Virus record (IMG/VR): IMGVR_UViG_3300013947_000002
Coordinates: 1 to 64,000 of that record
Length of the DNA stretch: 64,000 bases
Strand: one strand, 5' to 3'
From: a virus
Shown: positions 15,722 to 34,441 of the stretch, piece by piece
How the letters are laid out: the number at the start of each line of letters is the position of its first letter
Numbering within the stretch: position 1 is the first letter of the stretch
Notes under the pieces: model-generated
The model's input: only the letters and a program-made list of their open reading frames with translations
Databases searched by the model: none
What the model was told of the DNA's origin: nothing
Program-made: the position numbers and the translations under genes

Positions 15722-15731
15722 CGGTTATAAA

Positions 15732-15950
15732 TTATCTAATATATCCCCAATCATTATCATATTTATCTTGGGCTTTTACTTGTGCTATATCACGCCGTTT
15801 TTCTTCTTCATCTTGTTTGCGCTCTTCCGGCGTTCTATCGCCCGGCTTTGCATATCTTGGCACACAACATTTATATGTAAACCAACAGAAGAAGATGAGC
15901 CAAATAATAATAGCAAATGTGTATACGTCCTCCATTACAATCTCCCCCAT
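15732..15950 (-). CDS. small single-pass membrane protein encoded inside the TMP intron
   Basis: 72 aa with TM helix FAIIIWLIFFCWF followed by a highly charged tail. Overlaps the upstream small ORF by 16 nt. Confidence 0.55.
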   Translation of the reverse strand: MGEIVMEDVYTFAIIIWLIFFCWFTYKCCVPRYAKPGDRTPEERKQDEEEKRRDIAQVKAQDKYDNDWGYIR

Positions 15951-16141
15951 GTATCATCCTTGGTTGTTTCAACTTCTACCGTATTATCATCGACAGATTC
16001 AGACGCATCATTATTGTCACTGTTAAATAATCGCCTGAACAGACAAGAAATTGGCTGAAATAAAGCCTGTAGAATAATGATAGCAAGCCAACCAAGACAA
16101 TAAATAGTGCCGCAAAAAATAACGATAGACATTGTAATCAT
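15935..16141 (-). CDS. small membrane protein encoded inside the TMP intron
   Basis: 68 aa with an N-terminal hydrophobic segment (SIVIFCGTIYCLGWLAIIILQALF) and an acidic tail. A GAAGAGG RBS-like sequence lies upstream. Confidence 0.55.
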   Translation of the reverse strand: MITMSIVIFCGTIYCLGWLAIIILQALFQPISCLFRRLFNSDNNDASESVDDNTVEVETTKDDTWGRL

Positions 16142-16174
16142 GCTAGATACCTCTTCTCTCTATCAAGTATCTAT

Positions 16175-16203
16175 ACCATAGCATATATCAGATAATTTGT
16201 CAA
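16175..16203 (-). promoter_or_regulatory. sigma-70-like promoter inside the TMP intron
   Basis: The minus strand reads TTGACA-17 nt-TATGGT, about 30 nt upstream of the first intronic small ORF. Confidence 0.45.
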
Positions 16204-16550
16204 GGGGTTTTCAATCCCTTCCTGAATAATTCTTCACCCTATATATTTTGGAGGGCCGCCCTGTATATTCGATTGACACATCCCTCATCAGGACTTCGTG
16301 CCCAATCTGCCCTTTTGTCACGAATTTTATACATTATTCGTGACAGATTCTTTAGAGCTTTTACCCATGGAATCATCCTTATCGTCTTTCTGCTTTCGCA
16401 CAAATTCATTGTAAATAATGAATAATTCACACTCAGGCATATCTCATCCTCATGTTGTAGTGATAAGGCTCTTGAGGCTTTCAAGGGTTTAGGGGCTGTT
16501 CTCTATGCCGCTTTTCCATCGCGACATACCGGCTCAGACCGATTTGGTTT

Positions 16551-16949
16551 ACCGGTGCGGCCAACTGTTTGACCGATTTTGGTTAATTTGTCTACATAAT
16601 TGTCAAGTTCAGAGCCAGACAGCTCGGAGACTTTGCGAAACTCTGTAAGTGCATCATCAAGTTCATAGACCTGACCAACCATACTTCTAATGACATCTGA
16701 GAATTTACTAAATACCTCATTTGCCACGTTGAACGTCATTTGCAGGTCTTCACCAGAATCGTTGAGCCGCTTAGTAGCATCGGTCGCCTCATTGGCGTTC
16801 TTAGCTACCTTGTCTAGTCCATCTGCTCCAACCTTGAAGTTGATTTGCATATCCTTGCTATTTTGGATTTGCTTTAATTGCTTCTTTATACTCTCTTCTT
16901 GAAGCTGAACATCGACCAGAATCGAGTAGTTTGAGTTACTTCCAGCCAT
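16551..16949 (-). CDS. tail tape measure protein, exon 1
   Basis: ORF 16503-16949. Its N-terminus (..DALTEFRKVSELSGSELDNYVDKLTKIGQTVGRTG) is TMP-like. The read-through tail (KPNRSEPVCRDGKAA*) is taken to be intronic. Confidence 0.7.
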
Positions 16950-16952
16950 TCA

Positions 16953-17459
16953 TCACACTCCCTTTTTTATTTGTGAGTAGGCTATAAGAATAGACTCTGC
17001 GATATCATCATCATTGAGCCTACTTTTTGGCTTCACCCATCTTAGATTAAGCCCAAATTTTTCGTTAGCCGTCAGTACGGCCTTCTCCTTCATCGCATCT
17101 CGCTTTGTGCCCATCTTTGAGCCATCAAACAAGCCAATATCGCTGCGCCATTGAGACGGTAATAGGAAATGAACCGGCACATTATAATGTGTGGCAATAC
17201 TAAGGATATATCCCTGTACCGCCCCAAGCAACACAAGTGTCTGCATCTGCTTGCCAATCAAAGGAACGTCTTCAATGTAAATACAGAATGGCCTATATTG
17301 CTTGATAATCGCCTCAATTTCTTTACCCTCTTCTTCAAGTCGCTCACGCCAATGCAGGTCTTTTGATGGCTTGACCGCGCCATGATAAATAAGCTTATCA
17401 TCTTCAAAAACGGCAATTCCAGTACAGGTTGAAGATGCATCTATCCCCATATATCTCAT
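16953..17459 (-). CDS. RuvC-like Holliday junction resolvase
   Basis: Motifs 'MGIDASSTCTGIAV', 'IYIEDV' and 'DDDIAESILIA' match the RuvC-fold acidic residue pattern. 168 aa. Confidence 0.7.
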   Translation of the reverse strand: MRYMGIDASSTCTGIAVFEDDKLIYHGAVKPSKDLHWRERLEEEGKEIEAIIKQYRPFCIYIEDVPLIGKQMQTLVLLGAVQGYILSIATHYNVPVHFLLPSQWRSDIGLFDGSKMGTKRDAMKEKAVLTANEKFGLNLRWVKPKSRLNDDDIAESILIAYSQIKKGV

Positions 17460-17461
17460 AT

Positions 17462-18010
17462 CTAGTCCACCTTGGTTGTAGTGACCTCTATAGCCTTATT
17501 GTGCATCTGCACTTTAAGCCCAGCCGCCTCCAAACCCTCTTTCATCCATTGTTTCATCTTACGCCTGCCTATACGCTTATTGAGTTCAGCCCATGCATCA
17601 CGTTGCTTACGAAATACACCATCCCCAAAGAATGAACCGGTTGCGCCATTGTATATCAGTTCAGCTAAATAAGGTCGCGCATCCTGCCCATAGAAATCGC
17701 CGCCTACGCCAATATGCTGTGCATAGCTGGATGATTGCCGGTCGGTGCTACCAATGCTCATTTTTTCGGGCTTATACTCAAATGTGCCACGGCTCGTCCG
17801 CTCATTTATCGCCTTAGTATCGCCAGCGCCCCATGCTCTATAGAAATCGCCAGTACGATTATATTCTTCTGGGCTATATGCCATATAGACCACATCATGA
17901 ATAGCGCCAATATTCTCATCATATATTTTATCTATGACATAATTTATCGCTTTCATAATGGGGCTACGCAACATAGCTAGGACTTCTTTATCATTTCTTG
18001 CTTGAGGCAA
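17462..18010 (-). CDS. hypothetical virion-module protein
   Basis: 182-aa ORF. The track start is a TTG that overlaps the upstream gene by 20 nt. An ATG at 17972-17974 is an alternative start. Confidence 0.5.
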   Translation of the reverse strand: MPQARNDKEVLAMLRSPIMKAINYVIDKIYDENIGAIHDVVYMAYSPEEYNRTGDFYRAWGAGDTKAINERTSRGTFEYKPEKMSIGSTDRQSSSYAQHIGVGGDFYGQDARPYLAELIYNGATGSFFGDGVFRKQRDAWAELNKRIGRRKMKQWMKEGLEAAGLKVQMHNKAIEVTTTKVD

Positions 18011-18386
18011 GTTTCATCACCTCATCGACCTTATTACTGAATCGTGGCATTTCTCTTGCAATCTGAGTAATGGACTTCTGTAGCGATTCCTCATATTTAA
18101 TAGCGTCATACAACTGGAAGATATTCTCAATCCGTGCCTGTACCTCTTCAACAATACCCGTCTTGAGCCAATAATCATGGTCGTGCGCCTCAATCTCTTC
18201 CTTCTTCAAGTCGGTCGCGAAATAGAGGATACACATATCAATGCTCTGCTGTCTAGCCGCCCATGAATCCAGCTTTTTTAGTCCATCAACAATAGACTGA
18301 ATCTGGCTATATGTCAGGTACGGATTGACCTTGATGCCGTATTCCTTAATCTCTACTGGTTCTTTACTCATAATATTTTCCTTCAT
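17991..18386 (-). CDS. putative tail assembly chaperone
   Basis: 131-aa acidic protein lying between the major tail and tape measure genes. The call is positional only. Confidence 0.45.
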   Translation of the reverse strand: MKENIMSKEPVEIKEYGIKVNPYLTYSQIQSIVDGLKKLDSWAARQQSIDMCILYFATDLKKEEIEAHDHDYWLKTGIVEEVQARIENIFQLYDAIKYEESLQKSITQIAREMPRFSNKVDEVMKLASSKK

Positions 18387-18700
18387 TATTCCTTATTCTC
18401 CTTTACTACCTTATATGTTCCTTTATATTTCCTCAGTTCTACATTGTCAGGGATGTAGTCATACGGGTTCTTTACCTTGATAACTTTGTCATCAACCTGA
18501 ACATATAGATATCCATGCCGCTCAAACTGCACATTGCCGGTTGGCGCGGTCTTAATTGGACAATTAGCCATATACGCTAGGGGCTTCCAAATATGATGCT
18601 CTAAGCAACGCCGCACATGAGGACAAATATGGTTACCGCTTTGCTTATCACAAGTCGGTACTTTCTCATAATTAACCACATTGCAATATGGACAATCCAT
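18386..18700 (-). CDS. Cys-rich (zinc-binding?) small protein
   Basis: 104 aa with CPYC..C..C-type cysteine pairs near the N-terminus. Start and stop share 1 nt with the neighbouring gene. Confidence 0.6.
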   Translation of the reverse strand: MDCPYCNVVNYEKVPTCDKQSGNHICPHVRRCLEHHIWKPLAYMANCPIKTAPTGNVQFERHGYLYVQVDDKVIKVKNPYDYIPDNVELRKYKGTYKVVKENKE

Positions 18701-18713
18701 TATTTCTCACCTC

Positions 18714-18752
18714 GTAATAAAATGGGGAAAGATATTGCTATCTCTCCCCATT
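18714..18752 (-). terminator. rho-independent terminator after the major tail gene
   Basis: Minus strand shows a 13-bp stem (one mismatch), ATGGGGAGAGATA/TATCTTTCCCCAT, followed by TTTTATT. Confidence 0.55.
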
Positions 18753-18765
18753 AGGAATAATCAAA

Positions 18766-19697
18766 TTAGCCGGTTACAGTAACCTCGAAATAACCAACGA
18801 CAGGAACGCCACCATCAGCGCCCTTGAGCGTTGCAGAGATATGAGCCGTGCCAGCCGCCTTAGCGGTCACAACGCCCTTAGCGTCAACAGATGCATAGGT
18901 GTCGCCATCTTCAACCGCAAAGGTAAAGTTGGAGTTGTCCATAATCTTAGGCGCTTTATTGCCATCAAACAGGACATAGCAAACAGCGGTCTGAGTACCC
19001 TGAGCGGCTAGAGACATGTCAGCGTCCTCAAATGCAATAGCCTTGACTTCGTTCTGCCACTTTGCACCAAAGATTTCTTCGGTCATAGTGCCATAGTAGG
19101 ACTCGGATTCGCAAGAATCGGTGTTGTCAACTGCTAGAGCAGAGCCAGACAGAGAAACAGTGGCTGCGGAAGTTGCGGTCAAATTGAGGTCTTGAGCACC
19201 ATCAAGCTGTAGTCTGGGAATATCAGTAATCAGACGGCCAATCTTCGTTGCATTGTTCGTGGTGAAAATATCTGCATTGAACAGGTCGTTCAGAATGATG
19301 ACGTGAAGCTCATCAGGGACGTAGTCAACAGGAATAATGATGCTATCTGCATTGGCGTTCTGATAGAAATACATAACACAATACTTCTCACCAGCCTGTG
19401 CATTAGGAATAGCCATAGTATAAGTGCCAGTAGATTCAGTGATAGTACCAACAGAATAGTCGGCTTCACCGGGTTTACGATACCAGCCGATTAGAGAGCC
19501 TGCAACTGCGGACGGGGACTGTGGTAGAGTGACCTGACCAGCCGTAGCAACGGTAAGCTCATTCTGATAAACACCAAGACCGCCTTTGGTTAGGTCAACG
19601 CCTAGATTAGCGGCAATATACTCAAGCTTGAAGCAAGAGTCAGTAATCTGAACAGTAAGACCGGAATCATGGTAATATTTACCGATTAGTGCATTGC
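18766..19697 (-). CDS. major tail protein, exon 2 (C-terminal Ig-like Big_2-type domain)
   Basis: The frame stays open upstream of the track ORF as far as 19707, reading ..ALIGKYYHDSGLTVQITDSCFKLEY... The C-terminus 'DAKGVVTAKAAGTAHISATL..VTVTG' is Big_2-like. Confidence 0.65.
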
Positions 19698-20149
19698 CTA
19701 TTATATTTTATACCAAAAAAAATGGCATGAAATATTTTGTATTCATATTGGGTCGCAACGCCAATATCGACTTACTATCACTAGCAGTCTGCTCATGTTT
19801 TCACATGAGAGTAGAATATATGTTCACCCTATTTAATAGGGGTCGGATTTTTCCTCCTCCATACGCTTGAGGTTCTACTTCTCCCACAAGGAGATATTCG
19901 TTGAAAGTTTCCCATGTATATTATATCATATTACTATAAATATGTCAATATATTTAGGGATTTCTCTGCTAAACACCCATTTTTATCGGCATAGACTATT
20001 TAGGATTTGACCATGTAGTCATCCCACAACTTTTTTCTACTTTCGCAACCATTCAGCTTGTCGTTTCCAACTACTGTTTAGGTGTGTGGGCTTTAGGGAT
20101 TCAAAGCATTTAACCCGAAGTCATACGCTGATTACTCAACGTAGAGAGC
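19698..20149 (-). mobile_element. ORF-less group I intron in the major tail gene (boundaries +/- ~8 nt)
   Basis: About 450 nt with no ORF. It shares near-identical blocks with the MCP intron: 19968-19980, 20000-20014 and 20090-20114 match 25877-25891, 25900-25914 and 25996-26020. Confidence 0.65.
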
Positions 20150-20291
20150 AATTATTACCCTTACCACCGCGAATTTCTTCGCTAGAAATAGTGAAACCAA
20201 AGGTTGATTCGGTCAAAGTCTTAGCGAAGCCAATGATATTCTGACCTTTTAGGAGAATAGCATCGCCAACGCCAGCTAGGAATTTTCTCAT
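20150..20291 (-). CDS. major tail protein, exon 1
   Basis: Hand translation from ATG 20289-20291 (AGGAGG RBS) gives MRKFLAGVGDAILLKGQNIIGFAKTLTESTFGFTISSEEIRGGKGNN, then runs into a stop at 20136. Below the 60-aa track cutoff. Confidence 0.65.
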
Positions 20292-20305
20292 ATAGAATTT
20301 CCTCC

Positions 20306-21130
20306 TTATTTATTTATAATATTGTTTATATTCGCAATCGTATTGGGGTCGGCTTGTTTTACCTTGCCATCTCCACCCATAGATTTATTGTAGGATTCAA
20401 CAGATGTAATATATCCATCAAATCTATCTTTCTTCTTCTTATATATCCAATGCTCAAGCTCTTTGGCTTTACCGGCATATAGCATGATTGGACGCAAGGT
20501 TGTGAACTCAACCTCGCCTGCACATTCTTCAAATAACAACTGTAATGACCGCATAGAATATTGCATGAGCGCCTGTTTGCTAATGCCACAATGAGCCGTA
20601 ATGATAGCCATGCGCCGCTCTAATGATGGAACATCAATACCCTTGCTTTTTAACCTATCTACATCTTGCATTGCCTTCTTTAAGTCAGGGTCAATATATT
20701 CATCATCATAATGCGCTATATTCTGATATAATATAACCCGCTTAATATCATCGAATTGCTTGCCCGTTATCTCAAACGAATCATCGGGCGCAACTAGGTT
20801 GATTTTCTTCTTTTCATTCATCTTGATTTTCCAGTCTGGCATACCAAGACACAATTTCATGATATTGCAGAATTTATCTAACCCTATCTTCGATTGGTCT
20901 GTTGGTAGCATAACTTTGAACAAAAAATCAAGATAGCTCATCTGAATTATCTCAACGGAATTAAGTGCGTTTTTATCTATTTGAAGAATATCACAACTTG
21001 ACAAAAAGACCTCACTATCATATACTGATATAGGCGTGATATCTATATGTGTCGTGTCAGATAGCTTATATGGCACTGGCTTATCGAAATAAAAATATGC
21101 CTTCTCAAGGACGGATATATCAATCGCCAC
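20306..21130 (-). CDS. hypothetical protein (head-tail region)
   Basis: Track ORF is 20306-21208. The likely start is GTG 21128-21130, which has an AAGGAGA RBS and overlaps the stop of the upstream gene. Confidence 0.6.
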   Translation of the reverse strand: MAIDISVLEKAYFYFDKPVPYKLSDTTHIDITPISVYDSEVFLSSCDILQIDKNALNSVEIIQMSYLDFLFKVMLPTDQSKIGLDKFCNIMKLCLGMPDWKIKMNEKKKINLVAPDDSFEITGKQFDDIKRVILYQNIAHYDDEYIDPDLKKAMQDVDRLKSKGIDVPSLERRMAIITAHCGISKQALMQYSMRSLQLLFEECAGEVEFTTLRPIMLYAGKAKELEHWIYKKKKDRFDGYITSVESYNKSMGGDGKVKQADPNTIANINNIINK

Positions 21131-21707
21131 AACTAGTCTCCTTGCCAGCATCGCCAACATTGACCGCCATGTAGAGCTGTACGCCTGTGAACGTCTTATT
21201 ATTACCAATGGTTGACCGCGCCGCGCTATATCGGCTCATATCATCTAGGAACATGAGCTTGCCAATGCCGCCTACATCTACACCATTAAGTAAGTATAAA
21301 ATGCAATGAATGAACAAATCTCCGCGATTGACAGGAATGCCGTTATATTCAGCCAAGCTCATCTGGCCACCATATAGGCAATCAAACGCATAGACTACCG
21401 TACTAGTATATAGCTCAGAGGCATGGATATAATACTGGTAAATCTTGACAATCTGCTTAGATTCAGCCATAGCGTCCTCAATCAGATTAGTTAGGAATAC
21501 ACTGTAATTATCCTGCTTGCCCTGCGCCCACACCAGTTGCATCTTCTGCTTAAATGTAAGCGGCTCATGGCTTAACGCCTTATAGTCCTTATATGCCAGC
21601 ATCTTCCAAAAAATATCAGCCATAGGGTCGGTCGATTTAGCTAGATATACCATAATATTATATGGTATAGTCGGTAACCTTGACAATGAATTAAAAATCG
21701 TTATCAA
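21120..21707 (-). CDS. hypothetical protein (head-tail region)
   Basis: 195-aa ORF in the packed late operon. Confidence 0.65.
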   Translation of the reverse strand: MITIFNSLSRLPTIPYNIMVYLAKSTDPMADIFWKMLAYKDYKALSHEPLTFKQKMQLVWAQGKQDNYSVFLTNLIEDAMAESKQIVKIYQYYIHASELYTSTVVYAFDCLYGGQMSLAEYNGIPVNRGDLFIHCILYLLNGVDVGGIGKLMFLDDMSRYSAARSTIGNNKTFTGVQLYMAVNVGDAGKETSCGD

Positions 21708-21717
21708 CCTCCCTTAC

Positions 21718-22476
21718 TTAGCCCATCGGGAACGGCTCGTTCTCGTCCATAGGATAATCAATCGAGCTATTGTCTGCTAGTTGATTCTCAATGTCATCGC
21801 CAGTATGAGCCTCATCAAGATATAGGTCGAGATAAAGCAGGGTCGGCTTTGACATGCCTGCCGCATTGATTGCATTCTGATAAGATAACAGTTTAAACGG
21901 TCTGCCACCTAGCATATAGCGCGTATTCAACTTGAACAACCTATACACATCATCATTACCCTGAACCATAACAACCGCATGGTTATTTGGTGTGATAATG
22001 GGCGTACTGACCTGTGCGGATGGACTAGCCATATCGTAGTCAACAATGACAGGGACACTAAAGATGGTATCGTCATCCTTGATGCGCATATAGTTGTTGC
22101 AACGGCGCACGCCTATTGCTTTTGGTAGACCATCGAAGATGCCTGAGTCGTGAACTAGCCACACATCGTTTGAGAATTTATAGTATAAACCCCTGTCAAC
22201 GACATGGTTGATATCCTTAAAGATGAACTGTAGGAAATCCCTCGTATCCTTCAAACCAGTGCTTGTAGTAGCCACAGTCGGCTTCACCCAAGCCTCAATA
22301 CAATTATACTCATCAGAACCAATCGCCACCTGTTCGAGCAATGCGTCGCCATTCTCAGGCGTTTTAGCCGAGGTGTCATACCATTGTGCGTTTATAAATT
22401 CTTGCGTCAAGTCGCGGTAATAATCATTGGGGTCAGGCTGGTAATTAAACATCTCATATGCCATGTCAATCACCAA
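21718..22476 (-). CDS. hypothetical protein (head-tail region)
   Basis: 252-aa ORF that overlaps the upstream gene by 11 nt. Confidence 0.65.
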   Translation of the reverse strand: MVIDMAYEMFNYQPDPNDYYRDLTQEFINAQWYDTSAKTPENGDALLEQVAIGSDEYNCIEAWVKPTVATTSTGLKDTRDFLQFIFKDINHVVDRGLYYKFSNDVWLVHDSGIFDGLPKAIGVRRCNNYMRIKDDDTIFSVPVIVDYDMASPSAQVSTPIITPNNHAVVMVQGNDDVYRLFKLNTRYMLGGRPFKLLSYQNAINAAGMSKPTLLYLDLYLDEAHTGDDIENQLADNSSIDYPMDENEPFPMG

Positions 22477-22732
22477 TCCTTTCCATCTTATTGGTCATGC
22501 GCAATACGCATGAACGAATAATAGGATGGGTAAGCTCAAGCCCCATTTTACTAAGACCGGCCAACGTATCGGCAATTTCGCCATCAACCGCCCTAAATCG
22601 CACAGATAGCCGCTCACAATATGTCGTATAGTCGGCTTCGTCAATACTAGGGTTGGCGCTGGTTAGGTCTTCAAACAGCAATAACACCTTATATAAGGCA
22701 TGGATTTTTTCTTGTTTTTCTGTTCTACTCAT
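22466..22732 (-). CDS. hypothetical small protein (head-tail region)
   Basis: 88-aa ORF. Confidence 0.6.
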   Translation of the reverse strand: MSRTEKQEKIHALYKVLLLFEDLTSANPSIDEADYTTYCERLSVRFRAVDGEIADTLAGLSKMGLELTHPIIRSCVLRMTNKMERIGD

Positions 22733-22744
22733 ATATCCACCCCT

Positions 22745-23185
22745 TTAATAATCATAGGAGGATAGATATAAGAGCTGGTATTTATCGTGAATGAGCCTAT
22801 CTACATCTTCTTCGAGCTTATCAATGACGTTCTGTTTTTCCTTGAAATTCTGTGAGGATACGCCATCCATCTGGAAAGATGATGGAACTTTAAGTTTCTG
22901 TGCAATCTGAGATGCTACGTCCGTCTCGCCGCGCCACCAGTTGATAACCCAATAATCGGCAAGAATCTGAATCTCTAAATTTGTTAAGTCTGCGTCAAAT
23001 TGTCTAAGCTCTGAATCGTATGTTAGAGGTTGTTCACATTCTATAAACTTGGCCGCAGAGCTAATGACCCAACCATCAATTTTGTCGTGGAACATATCAA
23101 TGCTTGCATCATATAACTTACGCAGTTTATAGTCATCGATTACGCTTAATGCTCTTTCGCCAATAACATCAAATGATGTTGCCAT
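22745..23185 (-). CDS. hypothetical protein (possible head-tail connector)
   Basis: 146-aa ORF. The call is positional only. Confidence 0.55.
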   Translation of the reverse strand: MATSFDVIGERALSVIDDYKLRKLYDASIDMFHDKIDGWVISSAAKFIECEQPLTYDSELRQFDADLTNLEIQILADYWVINWWRGETDVASQIAQKLKVPSSFQMDGVSSQNFKEKQNVIDKLEEDVDRLIHDKYQLLYLSSYDY

Positions 23186-23191
23186 AATTTA

Positions 23192-23842
23192 TCACTCCTC
23201 TTCGAGGGGTTCAATATCTAGGAAATCTACACCTGTCAGCTTGCCAAGACGAACAAGGATATTAGCATCTACGGGCTGGCCGTTGAGCTGCTTATTTGAT
23301 ACCATGTCAATGATAATGCGCTTTTGCGAATCGGTCGCATTTTCAAACACGTCACAGACGTGATTTGCGTCCTGACTCAGTAGTGTCTTTAACTGTGCGT
23401 CAGTAAGCATACCATCATATACACCGCCCATGTTACAGGATTCTAGGAACTCATTATCAGGGATATATACATAACCCTCTGCAATGGTATTTGGCATATT
23501 CGCCACAATAATACGCGCCTCAGATTCTTGCACGCTCTTAGTACCAAACTGATTGTCGATATGATACATACGAGTGCCCTTGAGGTTAAGACCGCCTGTG
23601 GTCATATTGATAAATACAATCTGCTTGTTGGAGTTGACAGAATTAACAGGCGTTGCTACATTGCTCTGTGCTTGCATAAGAACCTGCATCTGCGCCATCA
23701 TTTCTTCCATGCGCTTCTGCTGTTCTGCAAGTTGCGCCTTTAGCTGTTCCTTTTCGGTATCAACAATTGGGGCAGTTGCAGTTGTCTCTTTCTTTGTCGC
23801 CGTCTTAGCTGTGGAGGTTGTAGATTTGGTTGTAGTTGCCAT
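23192..23842 (-). CDS. hypothetical protein with Thr/Lys-rich N-terminus and coiled coil
   Basis: 216-aa ORF. First gene downstream of the capsid gene. Confidence 0.6.
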   Translation of the reverse strand: MATTTKSTTSTAKTATKKETTATAPIVDTEKEQLKAQLAEQQKRMEEMMAQMQVLMQAQSNVATPVNSVNSNKQIVFINMTTGGLNLKGTRMYHIDNQFGTKSVQESEARIIVANMPNTIAEGYVYIPDNEFLESCNMGGVYDGMLTDAQLKTLLSQDANHVCDVFENATDSQKRIIIDMVSNKQLNGQPVDANILVRLGKLTGVDFLDIEPLEEE

Positions 23843-23878
23843 TCCTTTTAATTTCCTTTCTTATTTCCGTTATAAATT

Positions 23879-23903
23879 AAGGTGGGGTTATTAGCCCCAC
23901 CTT
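23879..23903 (-). terminator. strong hairpin after the capsid gene (attenuator/terminator)
   Basis: 9-bp perfect stem AAGGTGGGG/CCCCACCTT with a weak U tract. Confidence 0.4.
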
Positions 23904-23911
23904 AGACATGA

Positions 23912-24586
23912 TTACTCTGTAATCGTGAAAATACCAGCGTATGCGGATGCCACGAACTGGAAGTCGTATGCCTTACGGAGAGTTGCGTTCTGGCTGATAT
24001 CAGCATTGTCATAGAACTGGTTGATATTGCTGAGAGAAGTGCTGAGAGCGCCTTCAATAACCTTATTGACGGATGGGCTGATAACATAAAGAACGTTATC
24101 ATTTAGAGTCATGCCAAAGTTAGAGCCAGTGGGCATCTGAGGTAGCTCGTAAACATCAAAACCGTAGAAGTTCTTGACGAAAGAAACAACGCCTTCCTTG
24201 CCATCAACAGTCATACGATAGCCCATGGTGCTATCAGGTAGAACGTTCATAAGAGCGGCAGCAGTGCCAAGGATGACAGGCTTTGCCATCTGGTTATAAG
24301 CCTGAACGCGCTGTGCAAGCTGAACGAGCTTCTTGGCATCGAATGCGCCGGTTTCCTTGAACTGTGCAGGATAAGTGGCGGCATTTAGACCGGTGTTAAG
24401 AGCATTGATAATTTCGTTATTCATGCCGATTTCGGCAGAGATAACAACGTTACGCATGGACTCGGCAAGATCATCCTTACGGGCATAAACACGAGCCATG
24501 TCAACATAAGTAGTGATGATATGCTCAACAGGAGTTAGAACCATATCGCCACGGAACTTTCTCTGACGGAAAGATGTACGCTCACC
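23912..24586 (-). CDS. major capsid protein, exon 2
   Basis: The frame is open upstream of the track ORF (23912-24544) as far as 24601, reading ..AKGERTSFRQRKFRGDMVLTPVEH... There is no start or RBS for that extension. Confidence 0.6.
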   Translation of the reverse strand, partial: GERTSFRQRKFRGDMVLTPVEHIITTYVDMARVYARKDDLAESMRNVVISAEIGMNNEIINALNTGLNAATYPAQFKETGAFDAKKLVQLAQRVQAYNQMAKPVILGTAAALMNVLPDSTMGYRMTVDGKEGVVSFVKNFYGFDVYELPQMPTGSNFGMTLNDNVLYVISPSVNKVIEGALSTSLSNINQFYDNADISQNATLRKAYDFQFVASAYAGIFTITE

Positions 24587-24690
24587 CTTTGCACGTTGTG
24601 TTCACATAGATTCGCAATATCTATGCCGCCTTGCAGAGCGTTAAGCAAGGCTGCTTATGCTTTCACATAAGACCAGATTATTTCTTCATC

Positions 24691-25086
24691 TTATATATTC
24701 ATATCTATATATGTAAGCGAACGATTACCCTTGACCAAATAATCTATCGCATCAATTAGTTGTTGCTTTGTTGGCAGGTCGTCTTTTTTATTCGCCTTAA
24801 TTCTAAGCACTTTATAACCCTGCCCAATTAACCAATAATTTCTTCTCTTATCCTTTTCTTCTCTGTCTCGATGCCAATATTTACCATCATATTCAACGTC
24901 AATCTTACAATCGTTGAAAGATACGAAACAGTCCATGTTACATGAGCCACAAGAATAACCATCTATACAATTATCATCACCATAAATTTCGTGTAACATT
25001 GCACCTACCGCTTGCTCTGGCTTAGACGATGCAACGTTGCCACTTTTCATCAAGGCTTCGCGCATCTTGGCTATAACTTCTGGCAC
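24691..25086 (-). CDS. Vsr/DUF559-like PD-(D/E)XK nuclease domain (C-terminal half of the intron endonuclease)
   Basis: 'KIDVEYDGKYWHRDREEKDKRRNYWLIGQGYKVLRI' resembles the Vsr-like endonuclease core. It is in the same frame as ORF 25105-25734. GTG start with no RBS. Confidence 0.55.
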   Translation of the reverse strand: MPEVIAKMREALMKSGNVASSKPEQAVGAMLHEIYGDDNCIDGYSCGSCNMDCFVSFNDCKIDVEYDGKYWHRDREEKDKRRNYWLIGQGYKVLRIKANKKDDLPTKQQLIDAIDYLVKGNRSLTYIDMNI

Positions 25087-25104
25087 TTGTGTAGTATAAG
25101 GAAC

Positions 25105-25734
25105 TCAGTACTTAGCCATATTGGATTGTTTTATCTTTTCTGAGATTTTAGGAGTATGAGCAATATTTCCAGCTCCATACTTCTTTTCATTGGTCTCTTT
25201 TATCTTGTCTTGAATTTCTTTAAGCTCGAACACGTTCTTTACGCCAAATTTTTCTCTACATGAATTTTCTCTTTTGGCTCGAACAACATCTGAAATAATG
25301 GCTTTTTTATTGCCATATCGTTCGAGATTTGTTTGCTCTATTCTCTCTTGCACTTCTTTTGATTGAGCAGCATTCTCAACACCATATTTCTCAAGACAAG
25401 TCTGCTTAGACTTTTCTTTTATATCTTTAAGCTGAAAAGGATTAGAAACCCCAAAATTTTCTTGGTAATATTCTACAAATTTCTTTGGTTGGCATTTCTT
25501 GCAACAATCTCTGCCGTTCTCTCGTTCACTAAGATAGTTTACATATTGCTTGGTAATTTCTTTGCTACAATAATCACATATTACTTTAACTTTCTCGTGC
25601 GAACCATTAGGTAAATCTTCTGCATTTACTAATACCTTATCACGACATTTTGTATATTGATATCCCTTATCAATATAATGTTGCCTATTGGCTGGCATCC
25701 AAGTTGTCAATATCTTTTGATTTGGAACTAACAC
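25105..25734 (-). CDS. intron endonuclease N-terminal (DNA-binding repeat) half
   Basis: Cys-rich N-terminus followed by four repeats of the form (K/R)(Y/F)G..N......(EKYGVENAAQ, ERYGNKKAI, EKFGVKNVFE, KKYGAGNIAH). Ends at TGA 25105-25107. Confidence 0.55.
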   Translation of the reverse strand: MLVPNQKILTTWMPANRQHYIDKGYQYTKCRDKVLVNAEDLPNGSHEKVKVICDYCSKEITKQYVNYLSERENGRDCCKKCQPKKFVEYYQENFGVSNPFQLKDIKEKSKQTCLEKYGVENAAQSKEVQERIEQTNLERYGNKKAIISDVVRAKRENSCREKFGVKNVFELKEIQDKIKETNEKKYGAGNIAHTPKISEKIKQSNMAKY

Positions 25735-26080
25735 ATTACTTCATCTCCTTTCGTATAAAGTGTGTCAAGTTAAGTCATAAATATATAAGAGTCGCATTTT
25801 TCGCCCACCATTAGCTTGTGGACTACTCCGCCATTAGCGGATAATCGTTGAACCTATCCCTATTCGGGATGTGGATGCTAAACACCCATTTACATTCACT
25901 TAGGATTTGACCATATGAATATCTCTTGTGCTTTTTTATGCTTTCGCAGCGTATCGCATTTAGGCATATTTCATCCTTATGCTGTAGCGACAAGAGCTTT
26001 AGGGATTCAAAGCAGTTAACGCGAGATACTTGCCAATCGCTTGACAAGCAGGGCGATTGCCATTAAGCGGCAATTTTGTT

Positions 26081-26491
26081 ACCCTTGGAATTGGTGTATA
26101 GAGTACGGGCAGGAATCTCGACATGGATAGCATCAGCATAGCCAGTTAGACGCATATTAACAAATGGAGCAAAGGTACTTGCGACATAGCCGGGGAGGAT
26201 GGTGTTAAGAATGGCATTCTCAACAGCAAGCTCTGCCCAACGAACGACAGGGTTGGCAAACCATGCGTCACGGTTAGCCTCAGTTAGAGGGCAGTTGGAC
26301 ATCTTTTCGATCTCTGCAAAGTAAGCAGAGCAAACCTTCTCAGACTTCTCGGCAAGAGAAACGGAAGCATCATATGCGCCCATCTTCTGATGCCACTCGG
26401 TGTCGGCCTTATGATTGTGGTAATCTTCAAAAGCAGTATAGAAATCAGCATTGCCCTTGGCAAAGGTGATTAGTTCGTTAGAAATTGCCAT
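26081..26491 (-). CDS. major capsid protein, exon 1
   Basis: ORF 26063-26491 (MAISNELITFAKGN...LYTNSKG) with an AAGGAG RBS. Lies after the scaffold and decoration genes. Confidence 0.6.
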
Positions 26492-29221: not shown

Positions 29222-30799
29222 CTAATCCTCTAATGTTTCACGACTTGCTTCACCGCTGTCGGTAAGCGATGTCGAACTAGCCCTCGGACGGCCACCTTCA
29301 TTGCTTTGACTTGTCGTGTATGTGTTCATAAGCATCTGGCTATACTTGTCAATCCAACCAGTATATTTACTCTCAGCAAGCATCCTATCAAATATAACAG
29401 GATTCATGCCAACAGCGCTAGCCCATGCGGACGAGTTAAGCACAAGCCCCTTATCGGCCATCTTTATCAACTTGTCAAATCGCGCCTCACGCTCGAATGG
29501 GTAGTTGGAACCAGTGAACTCAAACTTAAACTTATACTTGCTAGTCATTTGATTGATATAGAAGTCAAGAAAATTATTGAACTGAGCGTACATTGGCTTC
29601 ATGGTCTGATAGACCTCATTGAGTGCCGCCTCTAATTCAGCATTACTCATCTTATCAGATGAATAGATGACACGGCTAATGCCCGTACCAATACCGGCGG
29701 TGGTGGTTAACTCATTGGTATAGCTGTCTGGGTTCTTGTCCTCGAATTGGAAAAATTTGATGTTCTTTAATGGCACGGCGGCCAGCTTAATCGTATTCTG
29801 CAAGCCCTGTTTACACTTCTGCATAAACGCTCCAAGCGTCTTCGGGTCGATTGCAAATTGGTTGGCTTTTTGGCCTGAGCGAGCTTGGTCAAACAACTCA
29901 ATTTCACCAGCTAGAATACCAGCCGCAGAAATAAGGTCTTTATTATATTGAAGTTCACCAATTTCGTCGCTACGTAGAACATTGGCTACGTATGGGGATA
30001 GAAACGGATTGTTAGCAAAATTATCTGTACTCCATTTGAAACACCACGCGCCATCATTTGGTGATGTGTCCATCCACATAGCATATGTGCCATCTCGTTT
30101 ATCTAGTGGAGCTGACGGGACATACGGCTTTTCGCCGTGGGATGTATCTAGATATTTTTTAACAAGAGTCGGATCCCATAAGCCCAGATCGACACCAACC
30201 TGATTAAAGTAGAGAATGTTGAATGACCAAATCATGCCCTTTTCAAAGTACCCTGTCAGCATACAATAATCCTGAGGCATAATCTGTAGAACATATTTCA
30301 TCTTGCCGCGATTGCCACTCTTGGTCTTTCTGAACCAAGTGAAATACGAGTCGCGCTTGAGAACATTAAGCAAGACATTGTAAAATTCTTTCTTGTAATC
30401 GAAATTGGTCAAGAAATTATCTACTGTCTGTCTATCCTTCTTATATTCATCTGACTCATAGTCCGCCTTTGTATATGCATTTTTACACGTTATCTGAAGG
30501 TCGAAAGATAGCGCGTTTGCATAAGAATACAATGTGCGCTTGAAAATCATGTCAAACGCCGATGCAAATTCTACAAACCCCTGTAAATCAGCGCCGCTAT
30601 TCTTATAATCATTAAGCGCCTTTTTGACCGCCTCTGCATTGGGCAGGCGCGGATTATTATTTAGATTGGTCAAGAGCTGATTGCTCAGGAATGGTGAATA
30701 GAAATTATCAACCGCCATAAGACCGGCACTAAAATCAATAATATCCTGAAGGTCACTCTTTGACAGCTTTACATCTTCATTATTTTTTGGCATCTTCAA
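29222..30799 (-). CDS. portal protein
   Basis: 525 aa, lying immediately downstream of the large terminase and upstream of the scaffold. The call rests on position and size. Confidence 0.6.
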   Translation of the reverse strand: MKMPKNNEDVKLSKSDLQDIIDFSAGLMAVDNFYSPFLSNQLLTNLNNNPRLPNAEAVKKALNDYKNSGADLQGFVEFASAFDMIFKRTLYSYANALSFDLQITCKNAYTKADYESDEYKKDRQTVDNFLTNFDYKKEFYNVLLNVLKRDSYFTWFRKTKSGNRGKMKYVLQIMPQDYCMLTGYFEKGMIWSFNILYFNQVGVDLGLWDPTLVKKYLDTSHGEKPYVPSAPLDKRDGTYAMWMDTSPNDGAWCFKWSTDNFANNPFLSPYVANVLRSDEIGELQYNKDLISAAGILAGEIELFDQARSGQKANQFAIDPKTLGAFMQKCKQGLQNTIKLAAVPLKNIKFFQFEDKNPDSYTNELTTTAGIGTGISRVIYSSDKMSNAELEAALNEVYQTMKPMYAQFNNFLDFYINQMTSKYKFKFEFTGSNYPFEREARFDKLIKMADKGLVLNSSAWASAVGMNPVIFDRMLAESKYTGWIDKYSQMLMNTYTTSQSNEGGRPRASSTSLTDSGEASRETLED

Positions 30800-30938
30800 C
30801 CTCCTTTCTTTGTTTTATATTTTTGAGTGTTTTTATTTTCGGCTTTTGATTAAGTCTAGTTGGAACTTGGATTTCACTAAACCCTAATAGCGCCTCCACA
30901 ACAACATACCAACATAGCCGTTGCTTCATAGGTAAATA

Positions 30939-32780
30939 TCACCAAACTAACTGCACGGAATCGATGTCAAACTCGTCCTCTTGCATCTGTTGTTGCCATG
31001 CGTTTTCAATTAAATCAATAACATAATTGCCGTACATAATGGTCACAATTCTATCCTTTGTACCATTGCGCGGCTCCTCTAGTTTAATCTTATCTTGCTT
31101 GATTACCGTCTTGAGGTTAACCGCCTCAATGACTGTCATATCGGTCTGACCATATGGCTCTAGCACATTAGCTAATTCCTCTGCGGTATATTTGTAATAT
31201 TCACCGCTATCAGTTAGCTCGTTCTGATAATCCTGCATAGAGATGAGGAATTTTATGTTGTTGGTTTCAAGCTGTTTGCGCAAAGATAACCAGCCCTGAC
31301 TATTTATTTCGGGAGTGGCTATAACTGGGATTAAGCATGGTATGGCGTTTTTATCAACAACACGGCTATGATAGTCGGCCAGTTTTGCATCTGACACAAC
31401 ATGATATTTGTCTGCGGGACTAAATCCGCAACTGTTCCATCTTGCGCCAAGGTTAGGCATTGACAATGGTTCTGTTAAGTGATTATAGAGAACTTCTCCA
31501 CCACTTCTTCCATCGAACACGGCATAGTCTGCATTATACACCCATTTGAGGTATCTAAATCTATCAGACGCGCCTATCGTATCAGATGCGTCATGCCCTT
31601 CAATATAATCAACATGGCGCTCAAACCGATTCTTCTTATTACTCCAATGAGCCGACATCAAAGCAATGATGGTATTGTCGTTCTTGGTACAACCAGTAGT
31701 GTTCGCGAAGGCCACATCCATCAATACAAGTCGCACTTCGTCGTCTTTCTTTGCTGGAAAATCAGGTTGTTCGCCAGAGAAGAATTGTAGTGCTGTAGGT
31801 GGACGGAAACATGGATTAAGGACTTGAGATTCTTTAAATTGCTGAATGGTAAAAAATGCATCTTCGTTCTCACCTATTGCCTCATTCAGCATCTCCATTC
31901 TAAAATCTTGGTCGTTCATAGTGCGCTTCTTCTGACGATAATCACCCCATGTTTTTAGACCATTCTCGATATTGTCAAAAAAGTCAGACGCAAACACATT
32001 GTATCTTGACTTTTTATCCATATAATATCCTGTTACACAATCCTTCCAAGTTCGATACCACCACTGATACTTATACTTAGAAGATGTCAGATATATACTC
32101 TTTGGTTCTTCAAGCCATCTTTTATTATTTGCGTATTTTGGATTATTCAAATAAAGAGGTTGCCTTGGAAATGCCATGCCTTCAAAAATCTGGTCAATAG
32201 CAGACTTTTTCATAACTGCCGCTTCGTCATAAATTGTAAAATTAGAACGACTGCGACGGCTAGACTCGACAGGCGCTAATACGCGCAGGACAGAATTATT
32301 AAGAGTGTTCTCTATTCTATAACCATCGCCCGGCTTGGTTATAACCAACCATTGTTTTTCGTAGCAATACCTGAGATAAGGAGAGAGTTTGTTAATCAAT
32401 TCCCTTTGAATCTTGTCCTCAACAATAGCATTGGCCTGATCTACGGTGGATGCCGTGACAACAATCCAACAATTCGGATAAAGCATAAGCTTACACATTG
32501 CAGCACAAGCCGTAACAAACGTTTTGGCACCGCCGCGCCCAGCTCTCCAAAAGAAGGTATCACTAACACCGATTTCATGTATAGCATCGCGCTGATACGG
32601 CTTTAACGATATACCAAGATGAAACTCTGTATAAATATCCCAGTTGTAACGGTACAAGGAGTCCCAATCTATAACCCTTTCTTCTATCTCTGCATCGAGA
32701 TTCTCATTACCAGATACTGTGCCACGCAATTTGTCAGCCATATACGCCCTACGAATGCCACCCATCTGAGAGCGCCCCAT
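30939..32780 (-). CDS. terL: terminase large subunit
   Basis: Walker A-like 'GRGGAKT' and Walker B-like 'TIYDEAA'. 613 aa. Lies upstream of the portal gene. Confidence 0.8.
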   Translation of the reverse strand: MGRSQMGGIRRAYMADKLRGTVSGNENLDAEIEERVIDWDSLYRYNWDIYTEFHLGISLKPYQRDAIHEIGVSDTFFWRAGRGGAKTFVTACAAMCKLMLYPNCWIVVTASTVDQANAIVEDKIQRELINKLSPYLRYCYEKQWLVITKPGDGYRIENTLNNSVLRVLAPVESSRRSRSNFTIYDEAAVMKKSAIDQIFEGMAFPRQPLYLNNPKYANNKRWLEEPKSIYLTSSKYKYQWWYRTWKDCVTGYYMDKKSRYNVFASDFFDNIENGLKTWGDYRQKKRTMNDQDFRMEMLNEAIGENEDAFFTIQQFKESQVLNPCFRPPTALQFFSGEQPDFPAKKDDEVRLVLMDVAFANTTGCTKNDNTIIALMSAHWSNKKNRFERHVDYIEGHDASDTIGASDRFRYLKWVYNADYAVFDGRSGGEVLYNHLTEPLSMPNLGARWNSCGFSPADKYHVVSDAKLADYHSRVVDKNAIPCLIPVIATPEINSQGWLSLRKQLETNNIKFLISMQDYQNELTDSGEYYKYTAEELANVLEPYGQTDMTVIEAVNLKTVIKQDKIKLEEPRNGTKDRIVTIMYGNYVIDLIENAWQQQMQEDEFDIDSVQLVW

Positions 32781-33639: not shown

Positions 33640-34441
33640 CGGCCAGCCCACACAGAGCCAGCCGTTCGTTTATTTCATTTATTCAGTTGTCAAGGTTCAT
33701 ACTGTGATACCCTATCGCTAGGGGCATACGGCGTTTCGCCTTTAGTTGAACAACAGTTCCCATTGAGTTGGGCTTATTGTAGATATGAGGCCGTAGCCTC
33801 CGTCACCTCCTTTCGTCAATTATGCTTCGGATAAACCAGTGGATAATTCAAGAGAAAGTGACCTCCCTTCGGATATTCATAGCCGCCAATGAGTAGTAGC
33901 GACAGGCAGTTTCAGTATGTGCCTAGATACAAGCATTTCGTCAAAGCTCTTACTTGTCAAGCGCCATCAAGCATCTAGCGCTACTCACTGTTATGTTTTA
34001 ATCACGGCTAAGACTCGCTTGGTGTTACCGCCAATTTGGTCTTATTTAATCCCTCATCCCATGCACACGGGAACCGCAGTGCGCCTCATCTTATTTCACC
34101 CACGCATGGCGCTATGTTGGGAAATATGGTGCAATGGGTCTTAGATGTCTGCTCATCTCGCCTTTGCCTACTTATAGCAGAATCACCTGATATTTCTTTG
34201 CCGCATATCAGAAGCGTTTTTGAATATACGGTTTTCATCGTTGCCTTATGGTATACCGCAAACCTTCGATAAGCGTCCACATATCACTCATAGGCAACCG
34301 AGCCATATGCTTCATACGTTCGTATAACACACCTGTTGCTATACGCCTATCATCAAGGATAGGATTTTCGATACTATATTGACGTAGCCCGCCACAGCCA
34401 ACGTCATGCTCGTATTAGGCTCCACTGAATTGTGGATTCAC
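33640..34441 (-). ncRNA. candidate ~0.8-kb structured ncRNA or long leader of the packaging/late operon
   Basis: No credible ORF on either strand. A consensus promoter lies at its 5' end. Contains tetraloop hairpins (33787-33800 GAGGC-UACG-GCCUC; 33710-33723 CCCUA-GCGA-UAGGG). G+C is well above that of other spacers. Confidence 0.5.

Follow-up and report, generated by a model that had tools for sequence, protein, structure and literature searches.

Three late structural genes of this phage, encoding the capsid, major tail and tape measure proteins, are very probably interrupted by self-splicing group I introns, an already known kind of element. All three lie within the minus-strand late structural operon of the window, that is, the whole 64,000-nucleotide stretch of DNA analysed here. 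Two of them, the capsid and tail copies, are members of a rare lineage of ribozymes that has so far been described only in IStron transposons and that most likely cuts one base 5' of the usual site.

A sequence-only reading had proposed three related group I introns in these genes, and comparison with intron-less homologues upholds it, as does the covarying core described below. In each gene both halves align to one uninterrupted homologue, and because such homologues span the two halves in one piece, the splitting is real. The boundary first given for the tape measure insert was exact, while those of the other two were off by 1–8 nt and have been revised. The inserts, read as group I introns, and their exons are as follows:

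24594–26081, minus strand: capsid intron, predicted to be IA2-like, 1488 nt, most likely with a G|U 5' splice site (intron-less homologue, spliced ORF, junction scan)
26063–26491, minus strand: capsid exon 1, with coding part 26491–26082; the annotated ORF continues into the intron up to a stop codon
23912–24593, minus strand: capsid exon 2 (homologue alignment, spliced ORF)
19697–20157, minus strand: major tail gene intron, predicted to be IA2-like, ORF-less, 461 nt, most likely with a G|U 5' splice site (homologues, Rfam, covariation)
20158–20291, minus strand: tail exon 1 (homologue alignment, spliced ORF)
18766–19696, minus strand: tail exon 2 (homologue alignment, spliced ORF)
15722–16550, minus strand: tape measure intron, 829 nt, with predicted canonical splice sites (homologues, P1, P10, spliced ORF)
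16551–16949, minus strand: tape measure exon 1 (homologue alignment, spliced ORF)
11294–15721, minus strand: tape measure exon 2 (homologue alignment, spliced ORF)

Excision of 26081–24594, 20157–19697 and 16550–15722 gives single ORFs of 363, 354 and 1608 aa (capsid, tail and tape measure, respectively), each a continuous frame matching the intron-less homologues. For the capsid gene these homologues (L004 and L005) are 94% identical, and L004 reads AAG GGT GCA AAG GGC at the insertion site; for the tail gene (L013–L017) they are 87–91% identical and read GGT AAG GG[C/T] AAT GCA. Uninterrupted homologues of both genes also occur in Enterocloster phage PMBT24. Intron-less tape measure homologues (L039–L042 and L045) read ..KTG|(T/S)(E/D)MV.. 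across the junction. The last base of exon 1 and the first of exon 2 would be G26082 and U24593 in the capsid gene, G20158 and C19696 in the tail gene, and U16551 and U15721 in the tape measure gene. The terminal (omega) G would be G24594, G19697 and G15722, and a terminal G fits every family site examined.

Could the inserts instead be selfish DNA, either a free-standing endonuclease or a moron cassette, that splits the genes permanently and leaves the halves to be translated separately or the genes dead? The unmet Rfam gathering threshold, the broken endonuclease gene and an internal ATG at 24544 in capsid exon 2 would suit such a reading, but it is very unlikely, as every examined site regains its exact frame on excision and the non-coding flanks adopt a conserved, covarying ribozyme fold. 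The interrupted genes are moreover essential, many phage contigs that look complete retain the same inserts, and the downstream exons of the tail and tape measure genes begin mid-domain without a start codon. Inteins, group II introns and translational bypass elements together carry almost no probability. Short direct repeats at the junctions, AAGGGT...AAAGGGT (capsid) and GG[T/C]AAT (tail), first suggested take-off and landing codons, but a natural AKG/KG repeat of the gene, together with P1/P10 mimicry, accounts for them, and 461–1488 nt far exceeds known bypass lengths. Inteins are excluded by host-frame stop codons inside the inserts, and group II introns by the lack of a reverse transcriptase and of domain V.

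Alignment and folding of the copies supported the group I intron reading: the inserts carry a core with P1 and its internal guide sequence, P3–P9 with the P3/P7 pseudoknot, the R and S elements and a terminal G. We scored a hand-built structure of the capsid/tail subfamily on an alignment of 19 sequences (the tail intron, 15 ORF-less IMG/VR relatives, the c-st IStron, and copies from Enterococcus and Staphylococcus phages). In this alignment 89.8% of cells pair, compared to 34–42% in slid controls, and 55 of the 84 pairs have changed on both sides; the observed values were reached in none of 500 shuffles. Changes on both sides affect 4/5 pairs of P3, 5/6 of P5a, 5/6 of P2 and 2/5 of P7, where one G-C is invariant. 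In every one of the 19 sequences this first P7 pair, which lies in the motif CAAC-GAWUA / UAWUC, is G-C; it marks a putative G-binding site recognized at the level of sequence. P1 pairs in 47% of cells and could not be scored in the multiple alignment, because the helix is site-specific. It can nevertheless be drawn with a U·G pair in all three introns: AGGGU/GCCCU (capsid), AGGGUAA/UUGCUCU (tail) and ACCGGU/GCCGGU (tape measure). In the capsid intron the wobble places U26081 opposite the G of the guide sequence, and the core elements were located as follows:

26050–26054, minus strand: internal guide sequence GCCCU, read as pairing with AGGGU (26085–26081)
25780–25846, minus strand: P7 5' strand (25846–25842), P7.1 (25840–25828), P7.2 (25821–25805), P3 3' strand (25796–25792) and P8 5' strand (25790–25780), from the hand-built fold
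24606–24699, minus strand: 3' core, comprising the P8 3' strand (24699–24689), J8/7 with the P7 3' strand (24680–24676), P9 with a GAAA loop (24671–24654), then P9.1 and P9.2 (partial Rfam Intron_gpI match)

The capsid P7–P8 region (25780–25846) shows compensatory changes when set against the tail copy and the broader family. Compensatory changes are likewise seen in P7.1/P7.2 of the capsid (25840–25805) and tail (19893–19856) introns. Both introns carry P7.1/P7.2 between the P7 5' strand and the P3 3' strand, have P9, P9.1 and P9.2, and contain a large P5 extension with GAAA loops; on this modelled structure they are assigned to an IA2-like subgroup. A search with Rfam Intron_gpI matched the tail intron (23.9 bits, E = 5e-4) and the 3' part of the capsid intron (21.1 bits, E = 0.011), both below the RF00028 gathering threshold of 50 bits, and gave no match to the tape measure core; none of the three introns reached the threshold, and whole-window scans found nothing. 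The homologous c-st IStron ribozyme, used as a control, scored 55.7 bits, above the gathering score. The low scores probably reflect large insertions in P5 and L6 together with the ORF in L8.

For the capsid and tail introns, the 5' splice site most likely lies one base before the position that the canonical rule gives, at G|U. Both are inserted at AAGGG|U, and sites of the subfamily are all GG|U or UG|U. At least nine subfamily insertion sites have intron-less homologues, and at all of them G|U...G| is among the best-matching junction choices; at five loci (L061, L074, L075b, L072 and L076) an mRNA that retained the U would encode another residue in place of a conserved one. In the window's own two cases, capsid and tail, the choices G|U...G| and U|...Y| yield the same mRNA, so support for the shifted site comes from the pattern across the family, from the requirement for a terminal G and from the published relatives. 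The same shift was reported for group B IStrons and confirmed experimentally for BcISt1, which splices after G (Tourasse et al. 2014, PMC4227781), and splicing of a C. botulinum IS607 IStron with a TGGG target regenerates the wild-type coding sequence in E. coli (bioRxiv 10.1101/2023.11.20.567912). Canonical splicing, with the U of the U·G pair left on the exon, is unlikely here, even though every member keeps that pair and, with U as the last intron base, the capsid mRNA would be unchanged. Under it, the last intron base would vary between U, C, A and G by site (C in the window's tail intron), which is incompatible with the G-binding site, and combining the canonical site with a terminal G would add one base to the mRNA and shift the frame. 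The BcISt1 experiment likewise speaks against it.

The closest described relatives of the capsid and tail introns are these group B (IS607-type) IStron ribozymes, namely BcISt1 of Bacillus cereus and CbISt1–4, including those of Clostridium botulinum phage c-st. The tail intron is 67.5% identical in nucleotides to the c-st ribozyme over 81% of its length (blastn, E = 2e-13), and the two groups share an IA2 fold with P7.1/P7.2 and P9–P9.2, GG-ending insertion sites (AGGG, TGGG), G as the last intron base and, most likely, the U of the U·G pair as the first. Their 3' ends differ, being ACG and AGG in the capsid and tail introns and CGG in group B IStrons. We therefore weighed whether the two inserts are themselves IStrons, group I ribozymes fused to an IS607/IS605 transposon and moved by TnpA/TnpB. 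The c-st element, where IS OrfA and OrfB come after a homologous ribozyme, and the shared target and G|U junction point in that direction. Such an identity is nonetheless highly improbable: the ORF list, Pfam and PHROG revealed no transposase or TnpB ORF in or adjoining any insert, only the endonuclease and two small membrane ORFs, which argues that the inserts are not IStrons. They also lack the omega-RNA; L8 of the capsid intron holds a DUF7487/DUF559 gene instead, and the tail copy has no ORF. Finally, each intron sits at the same structural-gene site in different phages, a pattern of homing rather than transposition, whereas group B IStrons occupy scattered chromosomal sites.

Read as group I introns, the inserts also resemble other phage systems. 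IA2 introns occur in Herelleviridae phages (Staphylococcus Twort/K-like, Enterococcus Brockvirinae and Bacillus SPO1/Bastille; PMC11878797, PMC3984707). These are likewise phage-borne and endonuclease-associated, have P7.1/P7.2 and often number several per genome, although Herelleviridae are a different host phage group from this siphovirus-like phage. Unannotated stretches after Herelleviridae tail-tube genes are 65–76% identical in nucleotides to the tail intron. The classic Twort orf142 introns were described with a canonical U-1 site. Phage T4 also carries three group I introns in one genome (td, nrdB and sunY). The T4 introns have ORFs in peripheral loops with their own promoters and home via intron-encoded endonucleases; their host genes serve nucleotide metabolism, the endonucleases are of the GIY-YIG or HNH type, and the splice sites are canonical U-1. 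An account of Cluster J mycobacteriophages (PMC3706429) describes siphovirus capsid and tail genes interrupted by introns that are present or absent among relatives. The host there is unrelated, and the likeness rests on gene placement and on presence/absence. The present phage has a siphovirus-like genome of ~90–100 kb, with Enterocloster phages as its nearest cultured relatives.

The sequence-only reading had assigned the inserts to three states: ORF-less (tail), endonuclease-bearing (capsid) and cargo-bearing (tape measure). This assignment holds, with the qualification that the endonuclease gene contains an in-frame TGA. The genes and promoter-like sequences of the inserts are:

24691–25734, minus strand: homing-endonuclease gene in loop L8 of the capsid intron (Pfam, PHROG)
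19920–19948, minus strand: sigma-70-like site in loop L6 of the tail intron (TTGACA, 17 nt spacer, TATAAT and TG extension; 12/12 matches)
15732–16141, minus strand: cargo of the tape measure intron, two overlapping small ORFs of 68 aa (16141–15935) and 72 aa (15950–15732)

The endonuclease combines DUF7487 repeats with a DUF559 PD-(D/E)XK nuclease domain (Pfam) and matches phrog_12131 'homing endonuclease' (E = 1e-35). A single TGA at 25107–25105 breaks its frame, and its homologue is an uninterrupted ORF of ~345 aa in >20 related loci. A same-site tail intron in another phage (L020) has a DUF7487/DUF559 gene in its terminal hairpin. The sigma-70-like site of the tail intron is conserved in alignments of same-site introns from other phages.

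In the tape measure intron the catalytic core spans 16550 to ~16200 and is followed by the cargo; no endonuclease gene is present in this intron. A U·G pair in P1 involves the last exon base (canonical U-1), P10 (UCGGA/UCUGA) lies directly 5' of the guide sequence, and P3 is short (4 bp). P7 leads straight to P3', with P7.1/P7.2 absent. By inspection of six sequences only, P2, P4, P5 and P7 covary in this subfamily. Both cargo ORFs encode a hydrophobic segment and are predicted to be small membrane proteins; they have no match in Pfam or PHROG, and a promoter scan placed a promoter-like site before them at 16203–16175. The second ORF (72 aa) is kept in same-site introns of L034, L035, L037 and L038.

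The shared sequence blocks noted in the sequence-only reading are all present in the order described, and a repeat search recovered them independently. GCTAAACACCCAT occurs at 19968 and 25877, TTAGGATTTGACCAT at 20000 and 25900, CTTTCGCA at 16393, 20040 and 25941, GCTTTAGGGATTCAAAGCA[T/G]TTAAC at 20090 and 25996, and ATG[T/C]TTTCACAT at 19795 and 24657. The likeness among the copies is far beyond chance. In nhmmer searches within the 64-kb window, the capsid core matched the tail core at E = 1e-16 and the tape measure core matched the capsid core at E = 1.4e-5 (reciprocal 1.6e-5); the tape measure core compared to the tail core alone was not significant (E = 0.15–0.36). For a tape measure segment (16393–16495) previously put at 75% identity, alignment gives 82% identity with the capsid copy over 77 columns and 66% with the tail copy over 93 columns. 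The tape measure intron is only a distant relative of the other two: P7.1/P7.2 are absent, the 5' splice site is canonical, and Rfam gave no match.

The further proposal that one intron family had spread within this single phage did not hold up. Introns at the tail site in other phages match the tail intron at 93% and 79% identity, compared to 62% for the capsid intron of its own genome; for the capsid intron, copies at the capsid site elsewhere share 78–84% identity. Introns at one site in different phages are thus closer than same-genome copies, and there is therefore no sign of recent spread within the genome. The introns instead form site-specific lineages that are polymorphic for presence or absence among related phages.

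We propose that each intron would fold into a group I core in which P1 forms between the internal guide sequence and the 5' exon, P3–P9 assemble with the P3/P7 pseudoknot and the G-C pair in P7 binds G. Two transesterifications would then excise the intron and ligate the exons in frame. For the capsid and tail introns the 5' exon would end in GG, the U opposite the guide-sequence G would be the first intron base, and the usual terminal G would close the intron. The tape measure intron would use a canonical U·G 5' splice site, and the two small membrane-protein genes after its core may be expressed from their own promoter-like site. At the DNA level, the DUF7487/DUF559 endonuclease encoded within the intron would drive homing. 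An endonuclease gene broken by one stop in the capsid intron and lost from the tail intron would fit a cycle of invasion, decay and loss.

The late genes of the window lie on the minus strand in the customary late-gene arrangement, the portal gene being followed by the capsid gene, the tail genes, a RuvC-like gene and the tape-measure gene:

32780..30939, minus strand, large terminase gene
30799..29222, minus strand, portal gene
16953-17459, minus strand, RuvC-like resolvase gene (Pfam RuvC, E = 3e-5), placed between the tail genes and the tape-measure gene

Among cultured phages, the nearest relatives are those of Enterocloster, PMBT24 for example, which share this gene order at ~35% protein identity for capsid and tail; the placement of the RuvC-like gene is matched in PMBT24. 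IMG/VR contig 3300013383_000025 is a very near, though not identical, relative. Elsewhere in the window, the Rfam 'drum' RNA motif (gathering score 43) is matched twice on the minus strand: at 30822-30934, in the gap that separates large terminase from portal, with 51.5 bits, and at 34224-34320, with 43.3 bits. A tRNA-like match at 58498-58567 (plus strand; 30.9 bits, barely above the gathering score) is aligned with an anticodon region that is unusually short.

The capsid, tail and tape-measure genes are each split, as the sequence-only reading had proposed, and comparison with intron-less homologues bears this out. The capsid gene is unbroken in loci L004 and L005 from other phages (94% identical), where it reads ...TNSKGAKGERTSF... 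(DNA AAG GGT GCA AAG GGC). The tail genes of loci L013-L017 (87-91% identical) are likewise unbroken and read ...EEIRGGKGNALIGKYYHD..., and more distant tape-measure homologues span the junction as ...KTG^(T/S)(E/D)MV... (carets mark junctions throughout). With 26081..24594, 20157..19697 and 16550..15722 excised, each gene becomes one ORF (363, 354 and 1608 aa) in agreement with the unbroken homologues.

The sequence blocks that the same reading had described as shared are all present at their positions and in their order, and a repeat search recovered them independently; no fourth copy was found in the window. Within the window, nhmmer matched the capsid and tail inserts mutually (E = 1e-16) and the tape-measure and capsid inserts in both directions (E = 1.4e-5), and found no significant match between the tape-measure insert and the tail insert alone. 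Rfam returned no group I match at the gathering score over the whole window, nor at E ≤ 10 over 12 kb. The Intron_gpI search proposed earlier was informative for two of the three inserts: searched alone, the tail insert scored 23.9 bits (E = 5e-4), in an alignment that sets out P3, P4, P5, P6, the R element UUCAACGAAUA, P8, the S element and P9, and the 3' part of the capsid insert scored 21.1 bits. The tape-measure core had no Rfam match, and at its curated threshold the Rfam group I model misses all three introns. A local hairpin formed by GCUUUGAAUCCCUAAAGC was considered and dropped, as the covariation seen among relatives speaks for the P4/P5 pairing set out in the Rfam alignment.

Searched by megablast, the 12-kb region had no match among GenBank phages, and matches appeared only in the more sensitive blastn mode, in which the tail insert found 89 GenBank phage records at 65-76% identity, from Staphylococcus Twortvirinae, Enterococcus Brockvirinae and Clostridium phage c-st. 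In c-st, the matched stretch is a ribozyme belonging to a published IStron, with IS OrfA and OrfB after it; its 55.7 bits exceed the Rfam threshold. One strict P3-P5-region motif retrieved 66 IMG/VR stretches. The tail intron was aligned with 15 non-redundant ORF-less relatives, c-st and the Enterococcus and Staphylococcus copies, and scored against a hand-built structure in which P3 and P7 were entered as a pseudoknot. Paired cells amounted to 89.8%, versus 34-42% with slid partners; both sides had changed in 55 of 84 pairs, and none of 500 shuffles reached the observed covariation values. Compensatory changes were found in P2, P3, P5a, P6, P7.2, P8 and P9, and P7 begins with a G-C pair that is invariant. 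The capsid and tail introns belong to subgroup IA2, because two hairpins, P7.1 and P7.2, lie between P7 and P3'; IStron ribozymes have likewise been put in IA2 (PMC4227781). Their low Rfam scores are probably explained by a large L5 insertion, which comprises a covarying stem, two hairpins capped by GAAA, an A-rich stretch and a further hairpin whose loop, AUGGUCAAAUCCUAA, is conserved.

The predicted splice sites of the tape-measure intron are canonical: P1 (ACCGGU/GCCGGU) has its U·G pair at the junction, the terminal base is G, and P10 (UCGGA/UCUGA) adjoins the guide sequence on its 5' side. The capsid (AGGGU/GCCCU) and tail (AGGGUAA/UUGCUCU) introns also have a clear P1 with U·G, yet their splice sites appear non-canonical. 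With U closing the exon, the intron would end in U (capsid) or C (tail), and canonical sites (U at -1 with a terminal G) are impossible in frame in the tail gene and would remove two conserved residues from the capsid. We set 79 family instances against every ORF of the fetched loci; intron-less homologues were available for 35 instances, at no fewer than nine distinct sites in capsid, tail and terminase genes and an RNA-polymerase-like gene. At every site, the best-matching junction choices include one in which the exon ends in G and the intron starts with U(A/G)A and ends in G; at five sites, a retained U would change a conserved residue (Ala to Val at two of them, and Arg to Cys, Glu to Val or Gly to Val at one each).

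A 5' site shifted in this way is already established in group B (IS607) IStrons, which are inserted after AGGG, TGGG or GAGG with U as the first intron base; splicing of BcISt1 after G has been demonstrated by experiment (PMC4227781), and the C. botulinum IS607 IStron, whose target is TGGG, has been shown to splice in E. coli, restoring the wild-type coding sequence (bioRxiv 10.1101/2023.11.20.567912). Based on the family-wide junctions, the IStron survey and this later work, we place the probable capsid junctions at G26082^U26081 ... G24594^U24593 and the probable tail junctions at G20158^U20157 ... G19697^C19696. The shifted site is argued from family and literature because, for these two introns alone, the U^...Y^ alternative yields identical mRNA. 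Short junction repeats had also suggested translational bypass, a target-site duplication or a non-G terminal intron base, all three of which were dropped on the family-wide junction analysis and PMC4227781. The Bastillevirinae paper makes no mention of splice-site shifts.

Loop L8 of the capsid intron holds one 347-codon frame with DUF7487 repeats and a DUF559 PD-(D/E)XK nuclease domain, matching phrog_12131 'homing endonuclease' at E = 1e-35. The frame is broken by a single in-frame TGA at 25107-25105 (minus strand), and its homologues are unbroken in >20 related loci; two explanations of the TGA are a recent nonsense mutation and a stop that is read through or recoded. No ORF is present in the tail intron, while among tail-site introns elsewhere that of L020 carries the same kind of endonuclease gene in the terminal hairpin and that of L018 a short remnant there. 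Loop L6 of the window's tail intron contains a promoter-like site:

19920-19948, minus strand, perfect TTGACA-17-TATAAT site with a TG extension

This site, kept in the same-site introns of L018, L030 and L059, may have served as promoter for an endonuclease gene since lost, or may be a late promoter in an internal position.

Tail-site introns elsewhere match the core of the tail intron at 93% and 79% identity, versus 62% for the window's own capsid intron, and capsid-site introns elsewhere match the capsid core at 78-84%; these identities show site-specific intron lineages. One or other intron is absent from close relatives. Given these absences and the site-wise core identities, endonuclease-driven homing with decay and loss would fit, rather than gene-to-gene copying within this genome. 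Of the proposal that one intron family had spread through three genes, the relatedness of the inserts and their group I core hold; spread within a single phage is not borne out by these identities.

The tape-measure intron has the P4-P6 region in common with the other two, without P7.1/P7.2. Its core ends at ~16200 and is followed by a second promoter-like site:

16203..16175, minus strand, promoter-like site after the tape-measure core

Two small ORFs with hydrophobic segments lie 3' of the core and this site. Neither matched a family in Pfam or PHROGs, and the second has relatives in same-site introns of four other phages. Related phages have a second tape-measure intron site (L043:1427-3001 and L044:1452-3001), between residues equivalent to 267 and 268, where the exon ends in C or G and the intron begins with an A paired with U, with no U·G and with G as the terminal base; relatives' tape-measure genes carry up to three inserts (L055).

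Unannotated family copies adjoin the annotated end of Herelleviridae tail-tube genes in Enterococcus phage EF1TV (L123:2940-3330) and Staphylococcus phage Stab23 (L122:2428-2830). The EF1TV gene is probably annotated too short, because its annotated TAA stop is formed by intron bases 1-3 (CAG^UAA). Another member (L003:1458-1845, minus strand) lies in an RNA-polymerase beta-like gene (...GGKGVISRV...VNMCGV^YGRENGGQ) of a large phage (IMG/VR contig 3300028886_000046, 178 kb), and further members occur on contigs of 150-280 kb.

To our knowledge, neither this ribozyme lineage without an IS, with a DUF7487/DUF559 gene or no ORF and at many fixed phage-gene sites, nor a related intron with non-endonuclease cargo has been described. 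Our joint reading, to which we give an even chance of being right, is that the capsid and tail introns belong to a large IS-free phage ribozyme lineage (66 stretches with the strict motif; at least nine sites in capsid, tail, terminase and RNA-polymerase-like genes), with a homing endonuclease or no ORF and a shifted G^U 5' site so far described only for IS607 IStrons, and that the tape-measure intron is a group I intron with moron-like small membrane-protein cargo and no endonuclease.

The basic picture is unchanged, in that group I introns in phage structural genes, several per phage, are already established (PMC3706429; PMC11878797; PMC3984707). In annotation, unless the introns are recognised, this phage group will have its capsid, tail and tape-measure genes miscalled as fragments. 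To RNA biology, the family brings numerous natural variants of a group I ribozyme, which seemingly cleaves one position 5' of the U·G pair, and these ease testing of how 5' splice-site choice shifts, the cause of which was left open for group B IStrons. For mobile-element evolution, it connects phage homing-endonuclease introns with the ribozyme part of IS607 IStrons. If the joint reading is true, the lineage would supply the separate copies of the intron component that a 2014 survey did not find (PMC4227781), the unusual cleavage position would be intrinsic to a lineage of phage introns, from which the IStron ribozymes would probably have been recruited.
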